A DNA stretch of 32,030 nucleotides, taken from the IMG/VR virus record IMGVR_UViG_2778261510_000008; one strand, given 5' to 3'. Under the pieces are notes generated by a model. It was not told the origin of the DNA and did no database searches. It worked only from the letters and a program-made list of their open reading frames with translations. The translations under genes and the position numbers were made by a program. This document shows positions 6,541-25,515 of the stretch, in pieces; positions within the stretch are counted from its first letter, which is position 1; each line of letters begins with the position of its first letter. The DNA is from a virus (Duplodnaviria; Heunggongvirae; Uroviricota; Caudoviricetes).

Positions 6541-8412
6541 TTACTGTGGTGGAGTCCATATTTTTAATGCGATATTTTTATATGTTTCCCCGCGTGCTGT
6601 AATAGCATTGGCGTTGAATTCAACATATTCTTCAAGATTGATATCGTTATTTGCAGATAAGAATCTTACCAGCTCAGGGTTGTTTTGATAAAAGTTTGCG
6701 CATAATGTCTGGCAAAGAACGTTTTCACCGCTATATACTGTTTTCTTTTCTGAGTACAACTTATCATTTAATGATCTGTTTCTTGAACGGGGAAGCAATA
6801 TCAAACCACCAATCAAGTTTCTCTTCTGCTTGTATTCAGTGTCAGATGAAAAACCGAAGGCTGATGAAGGCATGGTTGTATCATCAATTACTTCGCGAAG
6901 AACATGTTCTATATCAAAAGTTTTCATACCTTTGTCGCGTTGCATATAAACATCAAACCCTACTTTGTTTGTTAGGTTTATCTCGTTTTCAATGTAAGAG
7001 GCGATACGAGCCAGAATATAAAGCATATCTGATCTGGTTTTATTCTCGTACGCCATTTCTGGTATTCTATTAAGTAATGTATAATGCTTGTCCCATTCGT
7101 TTTGGACATAGCTTAACAATGCTGGATAATCTTTCCCTCTAACATCTTTAGCTAAGCTGAATGCAATATCTTTTAAATTGTCATAAGTGTTTGCTTTCTT
7201 CGATACGATTCGACTGGTGAGAATTAGATCAATATACTTAGATATTATTTGGATTTTTTTCTTACGAACATCACGGGTATCTGATAAATCTACAGAAGAT
7301 AGAATTATCATGGTTTGAAAGTTGAATTTTCTAATTCCATTATAGAAAACGTCAGGGTAATCAGTAGTCAGATTTTTCTCAGCATTGGCAATTGTCAAGC
7401 ATAAATTTGCATACTCGGGTATATCTGTTTTTGCAAAGTTATAAAAATCATCGGAAGTAATCAGACCGATATCATGGGTTTTATCTTCAAACCACCGATG
7501 ATAAGAATCATTGATTTTATCAAAATCACCAGGTGCATCGCCTTTATTTTTACCTCTAATAGTGTTTGCCCATTTAGCGCGTAATAAATTCCTGATAAAT
7601 AGAGAATCTCCCTCTGGATCTTTGTCTCTAAGTTTAGACATGGTTTTTACCCATACCTGATGGCATTCTTGACTATCTTCGGGGCTAGTGATTTTTGACA
7701 GAATAAAACCTTTTAATAGTTCAATTGCACCGAGTCTCAAGCCACGGTCATTCATTGTGACAAATACTCTATGCGCTTCTGACTCGCTTGAGACGGATAT
7801 ATCTATTAAAAGAACTTTTTCCATTAAATAATCAATAAAGAAAGAAACTTTTTCTTTTATTGTTGGATCCAAAGCATCCTCAATGGATTTTATTGCCTCA
7901 ATTATTCTTTTATCGCTATCACTAAGATTAGTAATGCTATCTACATCATCTAGTGCGTCTGCAAGACATTTTGCGTTGTCAGTATATTTTGTGAATATTT
8001 CTTTTCTAACTTCGGAAAATTCAATATTGAAATCGCGTTCCCCATAAGAAACACTCCCAATAAAATTTTCTAAAGCCAAAGTGTCTGGAATGTGGTTATC
8101 CTTGATATATCTTTCAAAAAAAACAAGAAGAATAAATATAGACGTGATTCGTTGTTGTCCATCAATCAACGGGCGCTTACCGTTGGTTTCAACCGCCGTA
8201 ATGATAGAACCAAGAAAGTATGGAGGATAAGATGATACATCGCGTCTACCATGAGTAGACTCATAACTCAGTAAGAAAGCATTTTGAATGTCATTTAACA
8301 TTTCAAGAAAATGCCTGCTTTCCCATTTATAATCCCTCTGAAAATATGGTAGTGAGTACTTGCTTTGAAAGCAGGTTTTTAAACTTAGAGTCGATGGGGT
8401 TATATACGCCAT
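6541..8412 (-). CDS. DUF262 (ParB-like, DGQQR motif) + DUF1524-like (His-Me finger) protein; candidate GmrSD-like type IV restriction / anti-phage defence protein in the P2 tin/old hotspot
   Basis: Long ORF 6541..8466; N-terminal motifs YFQRDYKW and LIDGQQRITS; C-terminal FDIEHVL ... NLIGGLILLPRSRNRSLNDK; AT-rich codon usage unlike the phage backbone; ATG at 8412 has AAGGA SD, ATG at 8466 has none. Confidence 0.6.
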   Translation of the reverse strand: MAYITPSTLSLKTCFQSKYSLPYFQRDYKWESRHFLEMLNDIQNAFLLSYESTHGRRDVSSYPPYFLGSIITAVETNGKRPLIDGQQRITSIFILLVFFERYIKDNHIPDTLALENFIGSVSYGERDFNIEFSEVRKEIFTKYTDNAKCLADALDDVDSITNLSDSDKRIIEAIKSIEDALDPTIKEKVSFFIDYLMEKVLLIDISVSSESEAHRVFVTMNDRGLRLGAIELLKGFILSKITSPEDSQECHQVWVKTMSKLRDKDPEGDSLFIRNLLRAKWANTIRGKNKGDAPGDFDKINDSYHRWFEDKTHDIGLITSDDFYNFAKTDIPEYANLCLTIANAEKNLTTDYPDVFYNGIRKFNFQTMIILSSVDLSDTRDVRKKKIQIISKYIDLILTSRIVSKKANTYDNLKDIAFSLAKDVRGKDYPALLSYVQNEWDKHYTLLNRIPEMAYENKTRSDMLYILARIASYIENEINLTNKVGFDVYMQRDKGMKTFDIEHVLREVIDDTTMPSSAFGFSSDTEYKQKRNLIGGLILLPRSRNRSLNDKLYSEKKTVYSGENVLCQTLCANFYQNNPELVRFLSANNDINLEEYVEFNANAITARGETYKNIALKIWTPPQ

Positions 8413-8571
8413 TAATACATCCTTTTGTCTGTAAAGAGCTTCTGTGAGAAGCGCATTATACTGCATTAAGCTGCATTAGTTTTCTACATGTTAATTGATG
8501 TCTACAAAGTAGATTTGACAAGTTTTTGAGGTGGGCGTGCACTTGCATTCAAACCGACCCATGAAGCGGGC

Positions 8572-12595: not shown

Positions 12596-12653
12596 CCGGC
12601 GTCAGTCAGTCCGGGAAAACCTTCACGATTAACCCTTAATTTCAGGAAAAACT

Positions 12654-13727
12654 ATGCGCCAGGAAACCCGCTTTAAATTTAATGCCTACCTGTCCCGTGT
12701 TGCCGAACTGAACGGCATCGACGCCGGTGATGTGTCGAAAAAATTCACCGTTGAACCGTCGGTCACCCAGACCCTGATGAACACCATGCAGGAGTCCTCT
12801 GACTTTCTGACCCGCATCAACATTGTGCCGGTCAGCGAAATGAAAGGGGAAAAAATTGGTATTGGTGTCACCGGCTCCATCGCCAGCACCACCGACACCG
12901 CCGGTGGCACCGAGCGTCAGCCGAAGGACTTCTCGAAGCTGGCGTCAAACAAGTACGAATGCGACCAGATTAACTTCGATTTTTATATCCGCTACAAAAC
13001 GCTGGACCTGTGGGCGCGTTATCAGGATTTCCAGCTCCGTGTCCGTAATGCCATTATCAAACGCCAGTCCCTTGATTTCATCATGGCCGGTTTTAACGGC
13101 GTGAAGCGTGCCGAAACCTCTGACCGCAGCAGCAATCCGATGCTGCAGGATGTGGCGGTCGGCTGGCTGCAGAAATACCGCAATGAAGCCCCGGCGCGCG
13201 TGATGAGCAAGGTCACTGACGAGGAAGGGCACACCACCTCTGAGGTCATCCGCGTGGGTAAGGGCGGTGATTATGCCAGCCTTGATGCACTGGTGATGGA
13301 TGCGACCAACAACCTGATTGAGCCGTGGTATCAGGAAGACCCTGACCTTGTGGTGATTGTGGGACGTCAGCTACTGGCGGACAAGTATTTTCCCATCGTC
13401 AACAAGGAGCAGGACAACAGCGAAATGCTGGCCGCTGACGTCATCATCAGCCAGAAACGCATCGGCAACCTGCCGGCGGTACGCGTCCCGTACTTCCCGG
13501 CGGATGCGATGCTCATCACGAAGCTGGAAAACCTGTCCATCTACTACATGGATGACAGCCATCGCCGCGTGATTGAGGAAAACCCGAAACTCGACCGCGT
13601 GGAGAACTACGAGTCAATGAACATTGATTACGTGGTGGAGGACTACGCCGCCGGTTGTCTGGTGGAAAAAATTAAGGTCGGTGATTTCTCCACACCGGCT
13701 AAAGCGACCGCAGAGCCGGGAGCGTAA
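12654..13727 (+). CDS. N: Major capsid protein, P2 gpN-like
   Basis: 357-aa ORF, size and position as P2 N. Confidence 0.9.
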   Translation: MRQETRFKFNAYLSRVAELNGIDAGDVSKKFTVEPSVTQTLMNTMQESSDFLTRINIVPVSEMKGEKIGIGVTGSIASTTDTAGGTERQPKDFSKLASNKYECDQINFDFYIRYKTLDLWARYQDFQLRVRNAIIKRQSLDFIMAGFNGVKRAETSDRSSNPMLQDVAVGWLQKYRNEAPARVMSKVTDEEGHTTSEVIRVGKGGDYASLDALVMDATNNLIEPWYQEDPDLVVIVGRQLLADKYFPIVNKEQDNSEMLAADVIISQKRIGNLPAVRVPYFPADAMLITKLENLSIYYMDDSHRRVIEENPKLDRVENYESMNIDYVVEDYAAGCLVEKIKVGDFSTPAKATAEPGA

Positions 13728-13730
13728 CCG

Positions 13731-14474
13731 ATGACGAGTCCCGCACAGCGCCACATGATGCGGGTCTCGGCAGCGATGACCGCGCAGCGGGAAGCCGCCC
13801 CGCTGCGACATGCAACTGTCTATGAGCAGATGCTGGTCAAGCTGTCCGCAGACCAGCGCACACTGAAAGCGATTTATTCAAAAGAGCTGAAGGCCGCGAA
13901 AAAACGCGAACTGCTGCCGTTCTGGTTGCCGTGGGTGAACGGCGTGCTGGAGCAGGGCAAAGGTGCACAGGATGACATTCTGATGACGGTCATGCTGTGG
14001 CGTCTGGATACCGGCGATATTGCCGGTGCGCTGGAGATTGCCCGTTATGCCCTGAAGTACGGTCTGACCATGCCGGGTAAACACCGCCGCCCCCCGCCGT
14101 ACATGTTCACCGAGGAGGTGGCGCTCGCGGCCATGCGCGCTCACGCTGCCGGTGAATCCGTGGATACCCGCCTGCTGACGGACACCCTCGAACTGACCGC
14201 CACGGCTGACATGCCTGATGAGGTGCGCGCAAAGCTGCACAAAATCACCGGTCTGTTTCTGCGTGACGGTGGTGATGCCGCAGGGGCGCTGGCTCACCTG
14301 CAACGTGCGACACAGCTCGACTGTCAGGCTGGCGTCAAAAAAGAGATTGAACGACTGGAGCGGGAGCTGAAACCGAAGCCGGAGCCGCAGCCAAAAGCGG
14401 CCACCCGCGCCCCGCGTAAGACCCGGAGCGTGACACCGGCAAAACGTGGACGCCCGAAAAAGAAAGCCAGTTAA
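13731..14474 (+). CDS. M: Terminase small/endonuclease subunit, P2 gpM-like
   Basis: 247-aa ORF with basic lysine-rich C-terminus, following N. Confidence 0.85.
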   Translation: MTSPAQRHMMRVSAAMTAQREAAPLRHATVYEQMLVKLSADQRTLKAIYSKELKAAKKRELLPFWLPWVNGVLEQGKGAQDDILMTVMLWRLDTGDIAGALEIARYALKYGLTMPGKHRRPPPYMFTEEVALAAMRAHAAGESVDTRLLTDTLELTATADMPDEVRAKLHKITGLFLRDGGDAAGALAHLQRATQLDCQAGVKKEIERLERELKPKPEPQPKAATRAPRKTRSVTPAKRGRPKKKAS

Positions 14475-14573
14475 CAACCGAATGCGCCCCGCGCCAGGGC
14501 GGCACGCCGGTCAGTGAGGGTGAATCACCTGACACTGCACCGGCGTCCACCGCCCGACTTTTCAGAGGTAGTC

Positions 14574-15083
14574 ATGATGACGCTGATTATTCCGCGAAAG
14601 GAGGCTCCCGTGTCCGGTGAGGGTACGGTGGTCATCCCGCAACCGGCAGGCGACGAGCCGGTGATTAAAAACACGTTCTTTTTTCCCGATATCGATCCGA
14701 AGCGCGTCCGGGAACGTATGCGCCTTGAGCAGACCGTCGCCTCCGCCCGTCTGCGTGAGGCCATCAAGTCAGGCATGGCGGAGACGAATGCGGAGCTGTA
14801 CGAGTACCGCGAACAGAAAATTGCCGCCGGTTTTACGCGTCTGGCGGACGTCCCGGCGGACGACATCGACGGTGAAAGCATCAAAGTTTTTTACTACGAG
14901 CGCGCCGTGTGTGCGATGGCGACCGCGTCGCTTTATGAGCGTTATCGCGGCGTGGATGCCAGTGCGAAAGGCGACAAGAAGGCTGACAGCATTGACAGCA
15001 CCATTGATGAACTGTGGCGGGATATGCGCTGGGCGGTGGCGCGTATCCAGGACAAGCCACGCTGCATCGTGAGTCAAATCTGA
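14574..15083 (+). CDS. L: Capsid completion protein, P2 gpL-like
   Basis: 169 aa from ATG at 14574 (MMTLIIPRK...) with GAGG SD; the track ORF starts at an upstream GTG. Confidence 0.85.
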   Translation: MMTLIIPRKEAPVSGEGTVVIPQPAGDEPVIKNTFFFPDIDPKRVRERMRLEQTVASARLREAIKSGMAETNAELYEYREQKIAAGFTRLADVPADDIDGESIKVFYYERAVCAMATASLYERYRGVDASAKGDKKADSIDSTIDELWRDMRWAVARIQDKPRCIVSQI

Positions 15084-15286
15084 TGAAGACCTTTGCGCTA
15101 CAGGGCGACACGCTCGACGCCATTTGTGTCCGGTATTACGGGCGCACTGAGGGCGTGGTTGAGACCGTGCTCGCCGCAAATCCGGGACTGGCTGAACTGG
15201 GTGCGGTGCTGCCACACGGCACCGCCGTCGAACTGCCCGACGTTCAGACCGCGCCCGTGGCTGAAACTGTCAATCTGTGGGAGTAA
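15083..15286 (+). CDS. X: Small tail protein, P2 gpX-like
   Basis: 67 aa from ATG at 15083 (ATGA overlap with L stop); MKTFALQGDTLDAI... Confidence 0.8.
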   Translation: MKTFALQGDTLDAICVRYYGRTEGVVETVLAANPGLAELGAVLPHGTAVELPDVQTAPVAETVNLWE

Positions 15287-15289
15287 CGC

Positions 15290-15571
15290 ATGACAGCAGA
15301 AGAAAAAAGCGTCCTGTCGCTTTTCATGATTGGGGTGCTGATTGTTGTCGGCAAGGTGCTTGCCGGTGGTGAACCCATCACCCCGCGTCTGTTTATCGGG
15401 CGCATGTTGCTCGGTGGTTTTGTCTCGATGGTTGCCGGTGTTGTTCTGGTGCAGTTTCCTGACCTGTCACTGCCTGCGGTGTGCGGCATCGGCTCCATGC
15501 TGGGTATCGCCGGTTATCAGGTGATTGAGATTGCCATTCAGCGCCGCTTTAAGGGCAGGGGGAAACCGTAA
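15290..15571 (+). CDS. Y: Holin, P2 gpY-like
   Basis: 93 aa with hydrophobic transmembrane stretches, immediately before the endolysin. Confidence 0.85.
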   Translation: MTAEEKSVLSLFMIGVLIVVGKVLAGGEPITPRLFIGRMLLGGFVSMVAGVVLVQFPDLSLPAVCGIGSMLGIAGYQVIEIAIQRRFKGRGKP

Positions 15572-16068
15572 TGCCGGTAATTAACACGCATCAGAATATC
15601 GCCGCCTTTCTCGACATGCTGGCCGTGTCCGAAGGGACGGCGAACCATCCGCTGACGAAAAACCGGGGCTATGACGTGATAGTCACCGGACTGGATGGAA
15701 AGCCGGAAATCTTCACCGACTACAGTGACCACCCGTTCGCACATGGTCGACCGGCGAAGGTGTTTAACCGTCGCGGTGAAAAATCCACGGCCTCCGGTCG
15801 CTATCAGCAGCTTTACCTGTTCTGGCCGCATTACCGCAAACAGCTTGCCCTGCCGGATTTCAGTCCGTTGTCACAGGACAGACTCGCCATTCAGTTGATC
15901 CGCGAACGCGGTGCGCTGGATGACATCCGGGCGGGACGCATTGAGCGCGCCATTTCACGCTGTCGCAATATCTGGGCGTCCCTGCCGGGTGCCGGTTACG
16001 GTCAGCGTGAGCATTCACTGGAAAAACTGGTCACCGTCTGGCGTACCGCCGGCGGCGTACCGGCTTAA
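15571..16068 (+). CDS. K: Endolysin (lysozyme), P2 gpK-like
   Basis: 165-aa ORF in the lysis cassette, size and position as P2 K. Confidence 0.85.
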   Translation: MPVINTHQNIAAFLDMLAVSEGTANHPLTKNRGYDVIVTGLDGKPEIFTDYSDHPFAHGRPAKVFNRRGEKSTASGRYQQLYLFWPHYRKQLALPDFSPLSQDRLAIQLIRERGALDDIRAGRIERAISRCRNIWASLPGAGYGQREHSLEKLVTVWRTAGGVPA

Positions 16069-16082
16069 ACGGAGTAAATACC

Positions 16083-16508
16083 ATGAAGAAATTATCCCTT
16101 TCACTGATGCTGAACGTGTCGCTGGCGCTGATGCTGGCACTGTCCCTGATTTACCCGCAGAGCGTGGCCGTCAATTTTGTCGCCGCCTGGGCGATTCTGG
16201 TGACGGTTATCTGTGTGGTTGCCGGTGGTGTCGGCGTGTATGCCACTGAGTATGTGCTGGAACGCTACGGGCGGGAGCTGCCGCCGGAATCGCTGGCCGT
16301 GAAGATTGTCACGGCGCTGTTATTGCAGCCGGTGCCGTGGCGCAGGCGGTCAGTGGCTCTGGTAGTGATGGTGGCGACGTTTATCTCGCTGGTCGCTGCC
16401 GGGTGGATTTTTACTGCGCTGATTTACCTCGTGGCGTCGCTGTTCTTCCGGCTGATACGTACGGCCTGCCGTCAGCGTTTTGAGGGGCGGGAACCATGTC
16501 AAAACTGA
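16083..16508 (+). CDS. lysA: Lysis timing membrane protein LysA-like
   Basis: 141 aa, multiple hydrophobic helices, position after K. Confidence 0.8.
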   Translation: MKKLSLSLMLNVSLALMLALSLIYPQSVAVNFVAAWAILVTVICVVAGGVGVYATEYVLERYGRELPPESLAVKIVTALLLQPVPWRRRSVALVVMVATFISLVAAGWIFTALIYLVASLFFRLIRTACRQRFEGREPCQN

Positions 16509-16921
16509 TGATTGTGCTGGTTGTGTTGTTATCACTGGCGGTGGCGGGGCTGTTTCTGGCGAAGCATGAAAACGCCAGCCTGCGCGCCTCGCTGGACAGG
16601 GCAAACAATGTCGCCAGCGGGCAGCAGATGACCATCACCATGCTGAAAAAACAGTTTCATGTTGCGCTCACCAGGGCAGATAAAAACGAGCTGGCGCAGG
16701 TTGCACTGCGTCAGGAACTGGAAAACGCCGCGAAGCGTGAAGCACAGCGCGAGAAAACCATCACGAGGTTACTGAATGAAAACGAAGATTTTCGCCGCTG
16801 GTACGGCGCTGACCTGCCTGATGCTGTGCGCCGGTTGCACCAGCGCCCGGCCTGCACTGACGCCAGTGATTGTCCACAACGCCTGCCCGAAAGTGAGCCT
16901 TTGCCCGATGCCGGGCAGTGA
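16496..16921 (+). CDS. lysB: Inner-membrane spanin (Rz-like) LysB
   Basis: 141 aa, N-terminal TM segment then charged coiled-coil-like region. Confidence 0.8.
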   Translation: MSKLMIVLVVLLSLAVAGLFLAKHENASLRASLDRANNVASGQQMTITMLKKQFHVALTRADKNELAQVALRQELENAAKREAQREKTITRLLNENEDFRRWYGADLPDAVRRLHQRPACTDASDCPQRLPESEPLPDAGQ

Positions 16922-17066
16922 CCCGGAGACGAACGGTGATTTAAGTGCCGATATCCGGCAGCTTGAGAACGCGCTGGCACGCTGTGCCAGCCAGGTAAAA
17001 ATGATTAAACACTGTCAGGACGAAAACGATGCTCAAACCCGACAGCCTTCGCAGGGCGCTGACTGA
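16776..17066 (+). CDS. lysC: Outer-membrane lipoprotein spanin (Rz1-like) LysC, starting inside lysB in another frame
   Basis: 96 aa with signal peptide and lipobox LCAGC; overlaps lysB 16776..16921. Confidence 0.75.
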   Translation: MKTKIFAAGTALTCLMLCAGCTSARPALTPVIVHNACPKVSLCPMPGSDPETNGDLSADIRQLENALARCASQVKMIKHCQDENDAQTRQPSQGAD

Positions 17067-17496
17067 TGCCGTCACGGTGCTGAAAACCAGTCCCGAGATG
17101 CTGCGGATATTCGTGGATAACGGGAGTATTGCCTCCACACTGGCGACGTCGCTGTCATTTGAAAAGCGTTACACGCTCAATGTCATTGTGACCGACTTTA
17201 CCGGTGATTTTGACCTGCTCATCGTGCCGGTGCTGGCGTGGCTGCGGGAAAATCAGCCCGACATCATGACCACTGACGAAGGCCAGAAAAAGGGCTTCAC
17301 GTTTTATGCAGACATCAACAATGACAGCAGCTTTGATATCAGCATCAGCCTGATGCTGACCGAGCGCACGCTGGTCAGTGAGGTGGACGGCGCGCTGCAT
17401 GTGAAGAATATCCCGGAACCCACGCCGCCGGAGCCGGTCACCCGCCCGATGGAGCTTTATATCAATGGCGAACTGGTGAGCAAGTGGGATGAATGA
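17029..17496 (+). CDS. R: Tail completion protein, P2 gpR-like
   Basis: 155-aa ORF, order and size. Confidence 0.85.
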   Translation: MLKPDSLRRALTDAVTVLKTSPEMLRIFVDNGSIASTLATSLSFEKRYTLNVIVTDFTGDFDLLIVPVLAWLRENQPDIMTTDEGQKKGFTFYADINNDSSFDISISLMLTERTLVSEVDGALHVKNIPEPTPPEPVTRPMELYINGELVSKWDE

Positions 17497-17941
17497 GTTT
17501 AAGCGTTTTGAAGACCGGCTGACCGGACTGATTGAGTCGCTGTCACCGTCAGGGCGTCGGCGACTGAGTGCCGAACTGGCGAAACGTCTGCGGCAGAGTC
17601 AGCAGCGTCGGGTGATGGCACAGAAAGCCCCGGACGGCACACCCTACGCGCCACGCCAGCAGCAGAGCGCCAGAAAAAAGACCGGTCGTGTTAAGCGAAA
17701 AATGTTTGCGAAACTTATCACCAGTCGTTTTTTGCATATCCGCGCCAGCCCTGAACAGGCATCAATGGAGTTTTACGGCGGGAAGTCACCGAAAATCGCC
17801 AGTGTGCATCAGTTTGGTCTGTCGGAAGAAAACCGGAAAGACGGTAAGAAAATTGATTATCCGGCGCGTCCTCTGCTCGGCTTTACCGGTGAGGATGTGC
17901 AGATGATTGAAGAGATTATCCTGGCTCACCTCGACCGTTAG
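17489..17941 (+). CDS. S: Tail completion protein, P2 gpS-like
   Basis: 150-aa ORF, order and size. Confidence 0.85.
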   Translation: MNEFKRFEDRLTGLIESLSPSGRRRLSAELAKRLRQSQQRRVMAQKAPDGTPYAPRQQQSARKKTGRVKRKMFAKLITSRFLHIRASPEQASMEFYGGKSPKIASVHQFGLSEENRKDGKKIDYPARPLLGFTGEDVQMIEEIILAHLDR

Positions 17942-19900: not shown

Positions 19901-20504
19901 TTCGCGACTGCTGCCGACCGGCTCATCACCGCTTGAAGTCGCTGCTGCAAAAGCCTGTGCGGAAATTGAAAAAACGCCGGTCAGTATTCGTGAGCTGTGG
20001 AACCCGGACACCTGCCCGGCAAATCTGCTGCCGTGGCTGGCGTGGTCATTTTCGGTTGACCGCTGGGATGATAAGTGGCCGGAAGCGACAAAACGCGCTG
20101 TTATCCGCGATGCGTATTTCATTCACTGCCATAAGGGCACTATAGGCGCAATCCGGCGTGTGGTGGAGCCGCTCGGCTATCTGATTGAGGTGAGGGAGTG
20201 GTGGCAACTCAATGAGGAGCCGGGGACGTTCCGTATCGTTGTTGGCGTGCTTGAGCAGGGTATTACCGAGGAAATGTATCAGGAGCTGGAGCGCCTCGTT
20301 GCTGATGCAAAACCGGCAAGCCGCCATCTGACGGGACTGGCTATCAGTTTAAGTACAACCGGCAACATTTTTGCCGGTGCGGGATGCTATCACGGCGACG
20401 CCCTGACAGTTTATCCCTACACCCCGGAGGCCATTATTGTCGGAGGGGATTATTTCCCGGCCTCGGCCATTCATTTAATTGATAACCTGAGAGTAAACGC
20501 ATGA
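19893..20504 (+). CDS. I: Baseplate protein, P2 gpI-like
   Basis: 203-aa ORF between J and H. Confidence 0.8.
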   Translation: MSDSRLLPTGSSPLEVAAAKACAEIEKTPVSIRELWNPDTCPANLLPWLAWSFSVDRWDDKWPEATKRAVIRDAYFIHCHKGTIGAIRRVVEPLGYLIEVREWWQLNEEPGTFRIVVGVLEQGITEEMYQELERLVADAKPASRHLTGLAISLSTTGNIFAGAGCYHGDALTVYPYTPEAIIVGGDYFPASAIHLIDNLRVNA

Positions 20505-21784
20505 CAGTGAAATACTACGCCATTCTGACTAATCAGGGCGCAGCACGGCTGGCTAACGCGACGATGCTTGGCAGTAAGCTGAATCTGACGCAAATGGCCG
20601 TTGGTGATGCGAATGGTGTCTTGCCGACACCAGACCCGGCACAGACAAAACTGATTAACCAGAAACGCATCGCGCCGCTGAATCTTCTGAGTGTTGACCC
20701 GAACAACCAGAGCCAGATTATTGCGGAGCAAATTATCCCTGAGAACGAGGGTGGATTCTGGATCCGTGAGATTGGGCTTTATGATGATGAAGGCGTACTC
20801 ATTGCGGTGGCGAACTGCCCGGAAACGTACAAACCGCAGTTACAGGAAGGCAGCGGTCGTACCCAGACTATCCGCATGATTCTGGTTGTCACGAATACCG
20901 AAGCTATTACGCTGAAAATCGACCCGTCGGTGGTACTGGCGACCCGTAAATACGTGGATGATGAAGTCCTGGAATTAAGGCTGTATGTGGATGACCAGAT
21001 GAGAAACCACATTGCCGCACAGGATCCTCATACCCAGTATGCACAGAAACATAATCCGACATTTACCGGAGAACCAAAAGCGCCGACTCCTGATGCAGGA
21101 AATAACACCACGCGGATTGCGACCACTGCGTTTGTACAGGCTGCTATTACCGCTCTGATTAATGGTGCGCCTGCCACGCTGGACACACTGAAAGAAATTG
21201 CCGCAGCCATTAACAATGACCCGAAATTCAGCACCACCATTAACAATGCGCTGGCAGGTAAACAACCGCTGGACAATACGCTGACTCATTTGAGTGGAAA
21301 GGATGTTGCCGGTCTTCTCGCATACCTTGGTTTGGGAGAAGGTGCTCCAACTATTGGCGTTCCGTTCTTCTGGCCCTCCGCTGCAATGCCAAATACTGTA
21401 ATCGACAGCTGGTCCGGTATGGTGTTTTTGAAGTTCAACGGGGCGAAATTTTCTGCCTCTGATTACCCTGTGCTGGCGAAAGTGTTTCCTTCGCTGGTAT
21501 TACCTGAAGCCCGCGGTGATTTCATTCGTATCTGGGATGACGGGCGAGGTGCAGATGGTGGTCGCGAATTATTAAGCTGGCAGGAAGCTACAAACTTTTC
21601 TCAGTTTGCCGGGAATATAGGCGGAGGTGCGGGACACGCAATTAACTTTCATGATGGCATCGCCGGAAATCAGCCAGGATTTTCACGATTTAATTTCACC
21701 AGTAACTCTGTGGGTGATGGTGTGAATTTTGTTGCTGTCAGACCGCGAAATATTGCATTTAACTTTCTGGTGAGGGCTAAATAA
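20501..21784 (+). CDS. H: Tail fibre protein: P2 gpH-like constant N-terminal part fused to a variable C-terminal part lying inside the invertible segment
   Basis: 427 aa; N-terminus MTVKYYAILTNQGAARLANA... as recalled for P2 H; crossover site lies within the coding sequence at 21315..21340. Confidence 0.85.
   Translation: MTVKYYAILTNQGAARLANATMLGSKLNLTQMAVGDANGVLPTPDPAQTKLINQKRIAPLNLLSVDPNNQSQIIAEQIIPENEGGFWIREIGLYDDEGVLIAVANCPETYKPQLQEGSGRTQTIRMILVVTNTEAITLKIDPSVVLATRKYVDDEVLELRLYVDDQMRNHIAAQDPHTQYAQKHNPTFTGEPKAPTPDAGNNTTRIATTAFVQAAITALINGAPATLDTLKEIAAAINNDPKFSTTINNALAGKQPLDNTLTHLSGKDVAGLLAYLGLGEGAPTIGVPFFWPSAAMPNTVIDSWSGMVFLKFNGAKFSASDYPVLAKVFPSLVLPEARGDFIRIWDDGRGADGGRELLSWQEATNFSQFAGNIGGGAGHAINFHDGIAGNQPGFSRFNFTSNSVGDGVNFVAVRPRNIAFNFLVRAK
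21315..21340. repeat. Left recombination site (gix/cix/hix-like 26 bp) inside the tail fibre gene
   Basis: ttctcgcataccttggtttgggagaa is an imperfect inverted copy of 23061..23086; homology continues into ggtgct on both sides and preserves the reading frame. Confidence 0.65.
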
Positions 21785-22377
21785 TGAAACCTGTTTTTGA
21801 TGAAAATGGGCTGGCTACAGTGCCGGGCGATATGCGTTGTTTTTATTATGATGCTGAAACATCTGAGTATACGGGCTGGTCTGATGAATATATTAATAAT
21901 GGCGTAAGTATGCCCGCCTGTTCCACTGGTATTGACCCGGGCGAAAACATTCCGGGGAAAGTGGCAGTATTTACGGGTAAGGGATGGAGCCATGAAGAAG
22001 ACCATCGCAATGAGACTGTTTACTCAACAGAAAATGGCGCAGCTGTTACAGTGGATTATATCGGTGCCATCAAAAACGGTTATGTCACGCTTTCACCGTT
22101 AACGACATATGATAAATGGGATGGTGAGAAATGGGTGACAGATACTGAGGCACAGCATAACGCCGCAGTAGAAGCAGCAGAAGCACAGCGCCAGTCACTG
22201 ATTGATGCAGCAATGGCTTCCATTAGTCTGATTCAGCTGAAATTACAGGCCGGACGGAAACTGACTCAGGCAGAAACAACCCGACTTAACGCCGTGCTGG
22301 ATTACATTGACGCGGTGACGGCAACAGATACCAGCACCGCGCCGGATGTCATCTGGCCTGAACTGCCGGAGGCGTAG
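21784..22377 (+). CDS. Tail fibre assembly chaperone (gpG/U-like), current orientation
   Basis: 197-aa ORF right after H; C-terminal TSTAPD-x-x-WP motif shared with the convergent ORF. Confidence 0.75.
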
Positions 22378-22777
22378 GCCATTCAATATCGGGTGCTGTT
22401 GAAGTATCAACACGCATCAGCAGCACACGGTATTTCTTCCATTCGGTGAGAGTTGAAGTTTCTTCATCAGTTGCGATATCAGCATCAACAGCATCCTGAC
22501 GCCAGGATATTTCACTGTCAGCTTTTTCCCGTAATTGGGATTTTTTAACTTCAGCAATAGCTATTAATTCCTTTTTGGTCGGCTGAGGAATATCTATCAG
22601 TGCTGGTTTTCCATTCAGTGTTCCAATCTGTTTTCCTGGTGGAATATCCATAAATAACTTTTTATGTTCTTCCTCACTGACTATTACACCATCATCAGGC
22701 CACAGACCTGATGCCTCAAATTTTTCTTTCTCCGATATGGGGAAAAAGCCATTTGCTTTAGCGCTCCATACGTACAT
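22349..22777 (-). CDS. Alternative tail fibre assembly chaperone (U'-like), convergent
   Basis: 142-aa ORF ending in [15 protein letters not shown], like the + strand chaperone; sits inside the invertible segment. Confidence 0.7.
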
Positions 22778-22778
22778 A

Positions 22779-23086
22779 TCAATACCCCACCGCTATAATG
22801 TCCACATTAAATCCCCCGGGACCTGCCTGCCAGATGCTGGCCCCTGTTAATGATTTTGTTTGATGAACAACCGCCACATTTGCTGGCGATAGTGTTTCAG
22901 TTGTTACAGTACCGATATCATTCCAGTTAATTGAGATGGAATAGTTCGTTGTTGTAAACGACCGGGGGAAAGTTATGTGTCTTGCATTGGTGCCAACAGG
23001 AAATCCAAGATAAACACGCTGAATTATCATTCCTCCAGGTAACATAACCCAGTTAGCACCTTCTCCAAAACCAACGTTTATGAAAA
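22779..23086 (-). CDS. Silent alternative tail fibre C-terminal cassette (Sv'-like); expressed only after inversion fuses it to the H constant part
   Basis: Reading frame open from the right crossover site; encodes [14 protein letters not shown]... whose first residues parallel GLGEGA in H; no own start or promoter. Confidence 0.6.
23061..23086. repeat. Right recombination site (gix/cix/hix-like 26 bp)
   Basis: ttctccaaaaccaacgtttatgaaaa; its reverse complement ttttcataaacgttggttttggagaa aligns with 21315..21340. Confidence 0.65.
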
Positions 23087-23140
23087 TGCAGAAATAACGA
23101 GCAAATGGCATCATTCCTGCTTTTGTCAGAGGGATCCACT

Positions 23141-23734
23141 ATGCTTATTGGCTATGTACGCGTGTCAACAAATGACCAGAACACGGAATTGCAGCGTAAC
23201 GCGCTGGAGTGCGCGGGATGTGAGCGGATTTTTGAGGACAAAATCAGCGGCACGAAGTCCGACAGGCCGGGACTGAAAAAACTGCTCAGGACATTATCGG
23301 AGGGGGATACACTGGTAGTCTGGAAGCTGGACCGGCTGGGGCGTAGTATGCGGCATCTGGTCATTCTGGTTGAGGAGTTGCGCGAACGCGGCATTAATTT
23401 TCGCAGCCTGACGGATGCTATTGATACCAGCACGCCGATGGGGCGTTTTTTCTTTCATGTGATGGGTGCCCTGGCTGAAATGGAACGAGAACTCATTGTC
23501 GAGCGGACTCGGGCCGGGCTGGAAGCGGCCAGAGCCAAAGGTCGTATTGGTGGCAGACGACCGAAACTCACCGCGAGTGAGTGGGAGCAGGCCGGGCGTT
23601 TGCTGGCTGCAGGGGAGTCACGTCAACGCGTGGCACTGATTTTTGATATTGGTCTGTCCACGCTCTATAAAAAATTTCCCTCATCAGCGACAAAGAATAA
23701 ATTGTGTCATCCCTTAGCCAACCGGGACAAATAG
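23141..23734 (+). CDS. Serine DNA invertase, Gin/Cin/Hin/Pin family
   Basis: 197 aa from ATG at 23141; N-terminal catalytic motif GYVRVSTNDQ, resolvase fold residues, C-terminal HTH; next to the inverted-repeat sites. Confidence 0.85.
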   Translation: MLIGYVRVSTNDQNTELQRNALECAGCERIFEDKISGTKSDRPGLKKLLRTLSEGDTLVVWKLDRLGRSMRHLVILVEELRERGINFRSLTDAIDTSTPMGRFFFHVMGALAEMERELIVERTRAGLEAARAKGRIGGRRPKLTASEWEQAGRLLAAGESRQRVALIFDIGLSTLYKKFPSSATKNKLCHPLANRDK

Positions 23735-23793
23735 CCTGACATCTCCGGCACAACTGAAAATATCACTCACCCATTAACCACGGAGTTAAACGG

Positions 23794-24984
23794 ATGAGTG
23801 ACTATCATCACGGCGTGCAGGTGCTGGAGATTAACGACGGCACCCGCGTCATTTCCACCGTATCCACCGCCATTGTCGGCATGGTCTGCACGGCCAGCGA
23901 TGCGGATGCGGAAATCTTCCCCCTCAATAAACCGGTGCTGATTACCAATGTGCAGAGCGCAATTGCAAAGGCCGGTAAAAAAGGCACGCTGGCGGCGTCG
24001 TTGCAGGCCATCGCTGACCAGTCAAAACCGGTCACCGTAGTCGTGCGTGTGGAAGACGGCACCGGCGACGACGAAGAAACGAAACTCGCGCAGACTGTTT
24101 CCAATATCATCGGTACCACCGACGAAAACGGTCAGTACACCGGACTGAAAGCCCTGCTGGCGGCGGAGTCGGTAACCGGTGTTAAACCGCGTATTCTCGG
24201 TGTGCCGGGACTGGACACCAAAGAGGTGGCTGTTGCACTGGCATCAGTCTGTCAGAAGCTGCGCGCTTTCGGGTATATCAGCGCATGGGGCTGTAAAACC
24301 ATTTCCGAGGTGAAAGCCTACCGCCAGAATTTCAGCCAGCGTGAGCTGATGGTCATCTGGCCGGATTTCCTCGCATGGGATACGGTCACCAGTACCACCT
24401 CCACCGCGTATGCCACCGCCCGTGCGCTGGGTCTGCGCGCTAAAATCGACCAGGAGCAGGGCTGGCATAAAACGCTGTCCAACGTCGGGGTGAACGGTGT
24501 TACCGGCATCAGCGCATCTGTATTCTGGGATTTGCAGGAGTCCGGCACCGATGCTGACCTGCTGAACGAGGCAGGCGTCACAACGCTGATTCGCCGCGAC
24601 GGTTTCCGCTTCTGGGGTAACCGTACCTGCTCTGATGACCCGCTGTTCCTCTTTGAAAACTACACCCGCACCGCGCAGGTGCTGGCCGACACGATGGCTG
24701 AGGCGCACATGTGGGCGGTGGACAAGCCCATCACCGCAACGCTGATTCGCGACATCGTTGACGGCATCAATGCCAAATTCCGTGAGCTGAAAACAAATGG
24801 CTATATCGTGGATGCGACCTGCTGGTTCAGCGAAGAATCCAACGATGCGGAAACCCTCAAGGCCGGAAAACTGTATATCGACTACGACTATACCCCGGTG
24901 CCTCCTCTTGAAAACCTGACCCTGCGCCAGCGTATTACCGATAAATACCTGGCGAATCTGGTCACCTCGGTTAACAGCAATTAA
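23794..24984 (+). CDS. FI: Tail sheath protein, P2 gpFI-like
   Basis: 396-aa ORF, size and order. Confidence 0.9.
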   Translation: MSDYHHGVQVLEINDGTRVISTVSTAIVGMVCTASDADAEIFPLNKPVLITNVQSAIAKAGKKGTLAASLQAIADQSKPVTVVVRVEDGTGDDEETKLAQTVSNIIGTTDENGQYTGLKALLAAESVTGVKPRILGVPGLDTKEVAVALASVCQKLRAFGYISAWGCKTISEVKAYRQNFSQRELMVIWPDFLAWDTVTSTTSTAYATARALGLRAKIDQEQGWHKTLSNVGVNGVTGISASVFWDLQESGTDADLLNEAGVTTLIRRDGFRFWGNRTCSDDPLFLFENYTRTAQVLADTMAEAHMWAVDKPITATLIRDIVDGINAKFRELKTNGYIVDATCWFSEESNDAETLKAGKLYIDYDYTPVPPLENLTLRQRITDKYLANLVTSVNSN

Positions 24985-24996
24985 GGAGCCTGACCG

Positions 24997-25515
24997 ATGG
25001 CAATGCCGCGCAAACTCAAGTTAATGAACGTCTTTCTGAACGGCTACAGCTATCAGGGCGTTGCAAAGTCCGTCACGCTGCCAAAACTGACCCGTAAGCT
25101 CGAAAACTATCGCGGTGCGGGGATGAACGGCAGCGCACCGGTAGACCTCGGCCTTGATGACGATGCGCTGTCAATGGAGTGGTCGCTCGGGGGCTTCCCG
25201 GATTCGGTTATCTGGGAGCTTTACGCCGCAACCGGTGTGGATGCCGTGCCGATTCGTTTTGCAGGCTCTTACCAGCGCGACGATACCGGCGAAACGGTGG
25301 CCGTCGAAGTGGTCATGCGTGGACGTCAGAAAGAAATCGACACCGGCGAGGGTAAACAGGGAGAAGACACTGAGTCGAAAATCTCCGTGGTCTGCACCTA
25401 TTTCCGGCTGACGATGGACGGTAAGGAGCTGGTCGAAATCGACACCATCAACATGATTGAGAAGGTGAACGGCGTCGACCGGCTGGAGCAACACCGCCGC
25501 AATATCGGCCTGTGA
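24997..25515 (+). CDS. FII: Tail tube protein, P2 gpFII-like
   Basis: 172-aa ORF following sheath. Confidence 0.9.
   Translation: MAMPRKLKLMNVFLNGYSYQGVAKSVTLPKLTRKLENYRGAGMNGSAPVDLGLDDDALSMEWSLGGFPDSVIWELYAATGVDAVPIRFAGSYQRDDTGETVAVEVVMRGRQKEIDTGEGKQGEDTESKISVVCTYFRLTMDGKELVEIDTINMIEKVNGVDRLEQHRRNIGL

Follow-up and report, generated by a model that had tools for sequence, protein, structure and literature searches.

Can the tail-fibre operon of the prophage in IMG/VR record IMGVR_UViG_2778261510_000008 switch between two alternative fibres by DNA inversion? The record, a stretch of 32,030 nucleotides that we refer to as the window, contains a P2-like prophage. An initial annotation, made without database searches, had read positions 21315–23734 as an invertible tail-fibre segment with a Gin/Cin/Hin-type invertase that replaces the P2 G and Z/fun region and follows the architecture of the Mu G segment and the P1 C segment. 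Every element of that architecture was found: the invertase, inverted 26-bp sites with a matching core, alternative C-termini in frame with the fibre gene H, and cognate chaperones. We conclude, with a probability of roughly 0.88, that the locus is a functional inversion switch of the Din family (Gin/Cin/Pin/Hin) in the tail-fibre operon of the prophage. The switch is real and probably active in this prophage. Since Mu, P1 and e14, fibre segments that are inverted by Din invertases have been part of the textbooks; the type of switch is already known, and there is nothing new here beyond the annotation of this genome.

The crossover sites define the segment. An inverted-repeat search gave as its top pair two arms of 32 nt, 21315–21346 and 23055–23086, that are 81% complementary. 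The left crossover site, TTCTCGCATACC-TT-GGTTTGGGAGAA, spans 21315–21340 with its core TT at 21327–21328 and is located inside the H reading frame (..LAYLGLGEG..). The right site spans 23061–23086, with its core at 23073–23074, and its reverse complement reads TTTTCATAAACG-TT-GGTTTTGGAGAA. The two 26-bp cores are identical at 20 of 26 positions and have the central TT in common, in inverted orientation, which confirms the pair of inverted 26-mers proposed in the initial annotation. When the 32-kb window was scanned with a Din-type consensus, TTCTCNNAAACCNNGGTTTNNGAGAA, at three mismatches or fewer, these two sites were the only matches, compared with 0.01 ± 0.10 expected from shuffled controls. 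No further crossover site was present within the window even at five or fewer substitutions, indicating a simple switch with two sites and two states. A multi-inversion shufflon, such as p15B Min or the second P2-like locus of enteropathogenic Escherichia coli (EPEC), is ruled out for the same reason. Comparison with known sites, also proposed at the outset, agrees: both sites can be aligned, position by position, with Mu gix, P1 cixL and cixR and the sites of Fels-2, all taken from authentic annotated records. The crossover annotated in P1, at positions 13|14, is the point that we used to simulate the flip.

The gene content is that described in the initial annotation: the segment holds the variable 3' part of H and one assembly gene and, on the other strand, a second assembly gene and an alternative fibre C-terminus, as borne out by open reading frames (ORFs), Pfam and PHROGs. 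In the orientation of the window, the H ORF occupies 20501–21784 (+) and encodes 427 residues. Its constant N-terminal part (20501–21327, +) lies outside the invertible segment and is of the P2 gpH type (Pfam PF12571 Phage_tail_fib, E = 2.5e-62, residues 1–150; phrog_327, tail protein). Fibre tip 1, the variable tip expressed in this orientation (21328–21784, +), is of the tail-collar type (phrog_523 and phrog_6459; Pfam Collar is subthreshold, E = 0.007). The tail fibre assembly chaperone for tip 1, a protein of 197 residues (21784–22377, +; Pfam Caudo_TAP, E = 3.3e-28; phrog_105, E = 2.6e-84), has a start codon that overlaps the H stop (ATGA). The chaperone for tip 2 (22349–22777, −) has 142 residues and matches Caudo_TAP (E = 1e-33), phrog_188 and Mu U (PDB 5YVQ_B, E = 1.2e-6); the two chaperone genes are convergent, with 3' ends overlapping by 29 nt. 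Variable tip 2 (22779–23073, −) carries a Gp53-like C-terminal domain (Pfam PF21882, E = 2.8e-6 to 4.3e-6), is silent as a fibre in the window orientation, and has a frame that is open up to the right site. The two tips therefore fall into different domain families, collar-type and Gp53-like_C. PDB sequence searches with both tips and chaperone 1 returned no match at the level of the tips.

Inversion was simulated by cutting at both TT cores and flipping 21328–23073 (1746 bp). The flip leaves H in frame and changes its length from 427 to 373 residues, with residues 1–276 common to both forms. In the flipped state chaperone 2 starts 1 nt after the new H stop, and each state has a different Caudo_TAP gene directly after H. 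The preserved frame and the separate chaperone in each state indicate that either orientation supplies a full set of fibre and chaperone, with expression driven from outside the segment.

We then used public genomes as a population sample, in partial substitution for the read-based check proposed in the initial annotation, searching 5,426 complete E. coli genomes by megablast with either the native 2.6-kb form (20900–23500) or its flipped form as the query. Matches came from 3,425 genomes. The native form gave single-piece matches with 100% coverage and 95–98.8% identity (H26–H31), and the simulated flipped form gave equally good single-piece matches at 96.5–98.8% (H51–H55). Among the best 25 matches for each form, 12 records per form begin within 6 nt of the query 5' end and thus cover the constant region of the P2-type H. 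Dozens of independent complete genomes show the same structure. Two loci, L001 in the native and L002 in the flipped orientation, represent the same type of P2-like prophage: the protein accessions of the invertase, both chaperones, J and V are identical, and the flipped H is annotated in L002 as an intact 373-residue ‘phage tail protein’. Aligned to L002, the flanks of the window are colinear at 97.4% identity, and 21324–23074 matches the opposite strand at 99.4%. The sites in L002 are the predicted hybrids, one made of the left outer half and the right inner half and the other of the reverse combination, which confines the exchange to positions 12–20 of the 26-mer. E. coli strain E308 (NZ_CP030281.1) contains two P2-like prophages with the cassette, one in each orientation (H27 and H56). 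In addition, apparently related isolates carry the same segment at the same chromosomal position in opposite orientations. Both states occur among near-identical natural prophages, and these genome comparisons strongly indicate that segments of this design flip in nature.

The enzyme that would carry out the inversion is intact. The invertase gene that the initial annotation had placed just outside the right site, on the strength of the motif GYVRVSTNDQ, is at 23141–23734 (+) and encodes a Din-family serine DNA invertase of 197 residues (Pfam Resolvase PF00239, E = 8.5e-53, and HTH_7 PF02796, E = 1e-12; phrog_125 DNA invertase, E = 2.8e-101). Only the start had to be corrected: by homology the gene begins at 23141 (MLIGY...) and not at the ATG further upstream, 23105. 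The protein is 78% identical to P1 Cin, 77% to Mu Gin, 85% to e14 PinE and to the Fels-2 enzyme, and 98% to that of L001. In an alignment of seven invertases all family-invariant columns are retained, including Ser9 in GYVRVSTNDQ, and the frame has no frameshift or stop; we found none of the inactivating mutations that the initial annotation had proposed to look for. The same invertase allele, WP_000905108.1, is present in prophages of both orientations (L001 and L002). The distance from the centre of the right site to the invertase start is 67.5 bp, exactly equal to that in Mu, Fels-2, K-12 e14, L001 and the Mu/e14-like prophage L004. The leader (23087–23140, +) has a conserved AAATGGCAT..CTTTT motif and no sigma-70 consensus match; the motif, AAATGGCAT(C/G)AT...CTTTT, is also present in the equivalent leaders of L008, L010, L003 and L004. 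Within the gene, 23159–23230 is homologous to nt 19–90 of P1 cin and, following the P1 annotation, is the predicted equivalent of a Fis-dependent recombinational enhancer. This stretch is 78% identical to P1, compared with 68% over the rest of the gene, a difference confounded by protein-coding constraint. By analogy with P1, it may act as an enhancer and depend on Fis.

Based on these observations, we suggest how the switch may operate. The serine invertase would pair the two 26-bp sites, cut at the central TT, exchange strands and flip 21328–23073; by analogy, Fis bound to the enhancer in the 5' end of the invertase gene would assist. Transcription of H would start outside the segment. In orientation 1, residues 1–276 of H would be joined to the tail-collar-type tip, which would be made together with chaperone 1; in orientation 2, the same residues would be joined to the Gp53-like tip, with chaperone 2. 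Given the two orientations, one lysogen population would release two virion types with different receptor-binding tips, a form of bet-hedging on host range. We infer this effect of orientation on host range, and the different domain families of the two tips are consistent with it.

The same segment is found in prophages of other types. It is 98–100% identical, over window 21315–23126, in the Mu/e14-like prophage L004 (7000–8811) and in a third type of myovirus prophage, L005 (7000–8771). Leftwards of the left site the sequences are unrelated in this comparison, and the invertase genes share only ~85% identity. Near-identity stops on the left within the left half-site, at some point from 21323 to 21328, and on the right ~40 bp past the right site, at ~23126. 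These limits fit an exchange at the core on the left and homologous recombination on the right. The idea that fibre modules are exchanged horizontally is an old one. At another locus, L011 (NZ_LR883050.1, 2916–5869), the segment has a pinE gene on either side, the two (519 nt and 555 nt) being in inverted orientation, and lacks a fibre constant region and tail genes; its neighbours are a GIY-YIG gene and Avs2, and several NZ_CM1805xx isolates have the same structure. Some records gave matches to the native as well as the flipped query. A tool artefact was considered and rejected, as these loci have pinE on both sides of the segment. The double-pinE locus L011 may be the product of recombination between two Din cassettes. 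On a wider reading, the segment would travel as an independent exchange unit, by way of the crossover sites, from one contractile-tail prophage to another, unrelated one. Cassette swapping between co-resident prophages could then explain L011, and the ORF on the invertase side might also give orientation-dependent, phage-excluding tip-only proteins, as claimed for StfE2 of e14. We consider this combination unlikely.

The ORF on the invertase side also raises the question whether the inversion serves the lysogen rather than the virion. The initial annotation had called the alternative C-terminus promoterless. This holds in so far as a scan for sigma-70 promoters, both around the invertase and within the segment, revealed nothing usable; however, an ATG at 23114 (−), outside the right site, opens its frame. 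The resulting ORF, 22779–23114, runs into the segment and encodes 111 residues in the native and 165 in the flipped state. If inversion, perhaps driven in trans by PinE or PinQ, changed the product of this ORF, that product could alter the surface of the lysogen and block other phages in the manner of e14 StfE2, which is reported to block T2 adsorption (PMC12529663). In e14, production of PinE or PinQ raises inversion at the repeat TTGGTTTGGGAGAAGG (Kirigo et al., 2025; PMC12529663), and this published repeat is identical to window 21327–21342, a 16-mer that includes the inner part of the left site. An ORF of the appropriate design is present in both states, the corresponding ORF of relatives is annotated as ‘gp53-like domain-containing protein’, and L011 holds the same segment beside Avs2, between two pinE copies and without tail genes. 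Nevertheless, in the window the segment is part of a complete P2-type late operon, the H constant region is intact, and the chaperones are placed for translational coupling, which points to a function in the virion. The ATG at 23114 has an AGGA directly ahead of it with essentially no spacing, a poor Shine-Dalgarno arrangement, and no promoter was found in the scan. The e14 precedent is a single study of a different tip. Expression of the tip-only ORF is unsupported, and its likeness to e14 stfE/StfE2 is a formal one. A role at the level of the host is thus quite improbable.

Several points weigh against a functional switch. The right site is the less symmetric of the two: 16 of 26 positions are self-complementary, and position 12 is a G in place of C. 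The invertase carries a C-terminal extension of ~13 residues because the junction between the cassette and P2 (23713/23714) falls within its last codons; the 3' end of the gene is fused into P2 backbone DNA, and the stop codon (23732–23734) sits in DNA homologous to the P2 pF activator site. The scan for a sigma-70-like promoter of the invertase was negative, which leaves its expression unproven. The proximal stretch that corresponds to the enhancer is GC-rich and part of the coding sequence. Different receptors for the two tips are assumed, and flipping in the source strain itself we infer from the public-genome population.

Two of these points, the negative promoter scan and the 13-residue tail, would be expected if the locus were a frozen relic, in which the architecture is intact and the segment no longer flips, the invertase being unexpressed or weakened by the C-terminal fusion. 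The orientations seen in databases would then be old, vertically inherited events. All invariant residues of the invertase are present, however, and C-terminal tails vary naturally across the family, Gin being longer as well. An identical invertase protein accompanies segments that are 99.4% identical and in opposite states, and the apparently related isolates differ in orientation at one chromosomal position. Furthermore, flipping within single colonies is known from related loci, both P2-like and e14. We therefore regard a relic as highly improbable. That the repeats arose by chance or by misassembly, without recombination function, is already refuted: only the modest 20/26 identity of the cores speaks for it, against two consensus matches where 0.01 is expected, positional homology to gix, cix and pix sites, an adjacent Din invertase at exactly conserved spacing, and recurrence of the structure in dozens of independent complete genomes.

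A functional Din inversion switch in the fibre operon agrees with what is known of related phages. Fels-2, a P2-like phage of Salmonella LT2 (NC_010463), has the same gene order: I, H, a G-like gene, a second G-like gene (−), an H-like C-terminus (−), the invertase and FI. Its Din sites are at equivalent places, the H-side half-site reading TTCTCACATACC compared with TTCTCGCATACC in the window, and the 67.5-bp spacing is shared. Fels-2 differs in its core, TC instead of TT, and in the genus of its host; its fibre tips and H are ~67–69% identical to those of the window at the DNA level, or unrelated. Work by Kutsukake et al. in 2006 reportedly dealt with the Fels-2 Fin invertase.

Inversion of related loci has been observed directly. 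Read mapping showed it in e14, a Mu prophage and two P2-like loci of EPEC, with confirmation by polymerase chain reaction for e14 and shufflon cases (Goldberg et al., 2014; PMC4272514). One P2-like locus of EPEC E2348/69 (NC_011601.1, 2977580–2979467) has the same layout as the window: tip, tfa, tfa (−), gp53-like tip (−), recombinase and FI. In the fetched record, the centres of its Din sites coincide with the published inversion ends. Its inner half-site, GGTTTGGGAGAA, and its TT core are identical to those of the window, and its invertase is 80% identical. Most of the segment content differs, the exception being a 316-bp chaperone stretch with 91% identity, and the prophage is truncated upstream of the segment. 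The P segment of e14 in E. coli K-12 shares the design of the window (stfP, tfaP, tfaE (−), stfE (−), pinE) but has a different backbone, a defective lambdoid/Mu-like tail module rather than P2. K-12 e14 was considered as a close relative of the segment and rejected, since only ~300 bp of tfa, at 94% identity, and pin, at 80%, match; the close matches to the segment are e14/Mu-like and other prophages in strains other than K-12.

In Mu G and P1 C, as in the window, a constant fibre N-terminus lies outside the segment, two C-termini and the U/U' chaperones lie inside, the sites are 26 bp long, and the invertase is adjacent. The segments differ in length (1.75 kb in the window, 3.06 kb in Mu and 4.26 kb in P1), and the tips are unrelated. 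Unlike the arrangement in the window, P1 cin is found at the opposite side, where its 3' end is overlapped by cixL. Among P2-like phages the arrangement is not isolated: a 2024 preprint describes a DNA invertase as frequent in the P2 Z/fun hotspot, with neighbouring genes inverted, and the deposited P2-like phages 500465-2, pro483, S164 and ‘P2’ from O157:H43 have an annotated invertase and two chaperone genes.

Comparison with P2 delimits the DNA that the cassette replaces. By its sequence, the window contains an entire P2-like prophage (Peduoviridae) from E. coli, with Int, C, Cox, A and Ogr, the full set of late genes in P2 order, and a host U32 peptidase gene at its border; the nearest phages are Peduovirus. 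In blastn alignments, homology to P2 DNA ends at 20329 inside gene I, the J–I side being 93.6% identical, and returns at 23714 in the pF-FI-FII region, where window 23714–25142 corresponds to P2 17572–19000 at 97.3%. The point of return, 23714–23793 (+), is the pF late-promoter and activator-site region upstream of FI (P2 activator-site annotation 17555–17583) and overlaps the last codons of the invertase. The P2 interval replaced by the cassette is 12630–17571. From the break and the return of homology it follows that the end of I, H, G and fun(Z) have all been swapped; the N-terminal region of H has ~42% amino acid identity to P2 H. The initial annotation was therefore right that G and fun(Z) lie inside the swapped interval. 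It was imprecise about the extent: the end of I and H are swapped too, and G-type chaperones are retained in the cassette, in two copies.

Elsewhere in the prophage, between replication gene A and portal gene Q, a gene of the GmrSD family (6541–8466, −) encodes a 641-residue, type IV restriction-like protein (PADLOC HEC-06/Orf5). Its position is that of the P2 old/tin defence hotspot. We also observed that database records mislabel chimeric fibres of this kind. In RefSeq, the intact H of L001 (3602–4885) is split into two ‘pseudogene’ pieces, and a fibre with the collar-type tip is annotated as ‘integrase’ in L004 (6723–7469) and L011 (4791–5252).

The sharp modular boundaries of the segment and the orphan double-pinE locus are modestly interesting for the study of fibre-module exchange. 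For the annotation of this genome, the seemingly ‘orphan’ fibre fragment and the second chaperone are functional parts rather than pseudogenes, and the prophage should be annotated as encoding two alternative receptor-binding tips.

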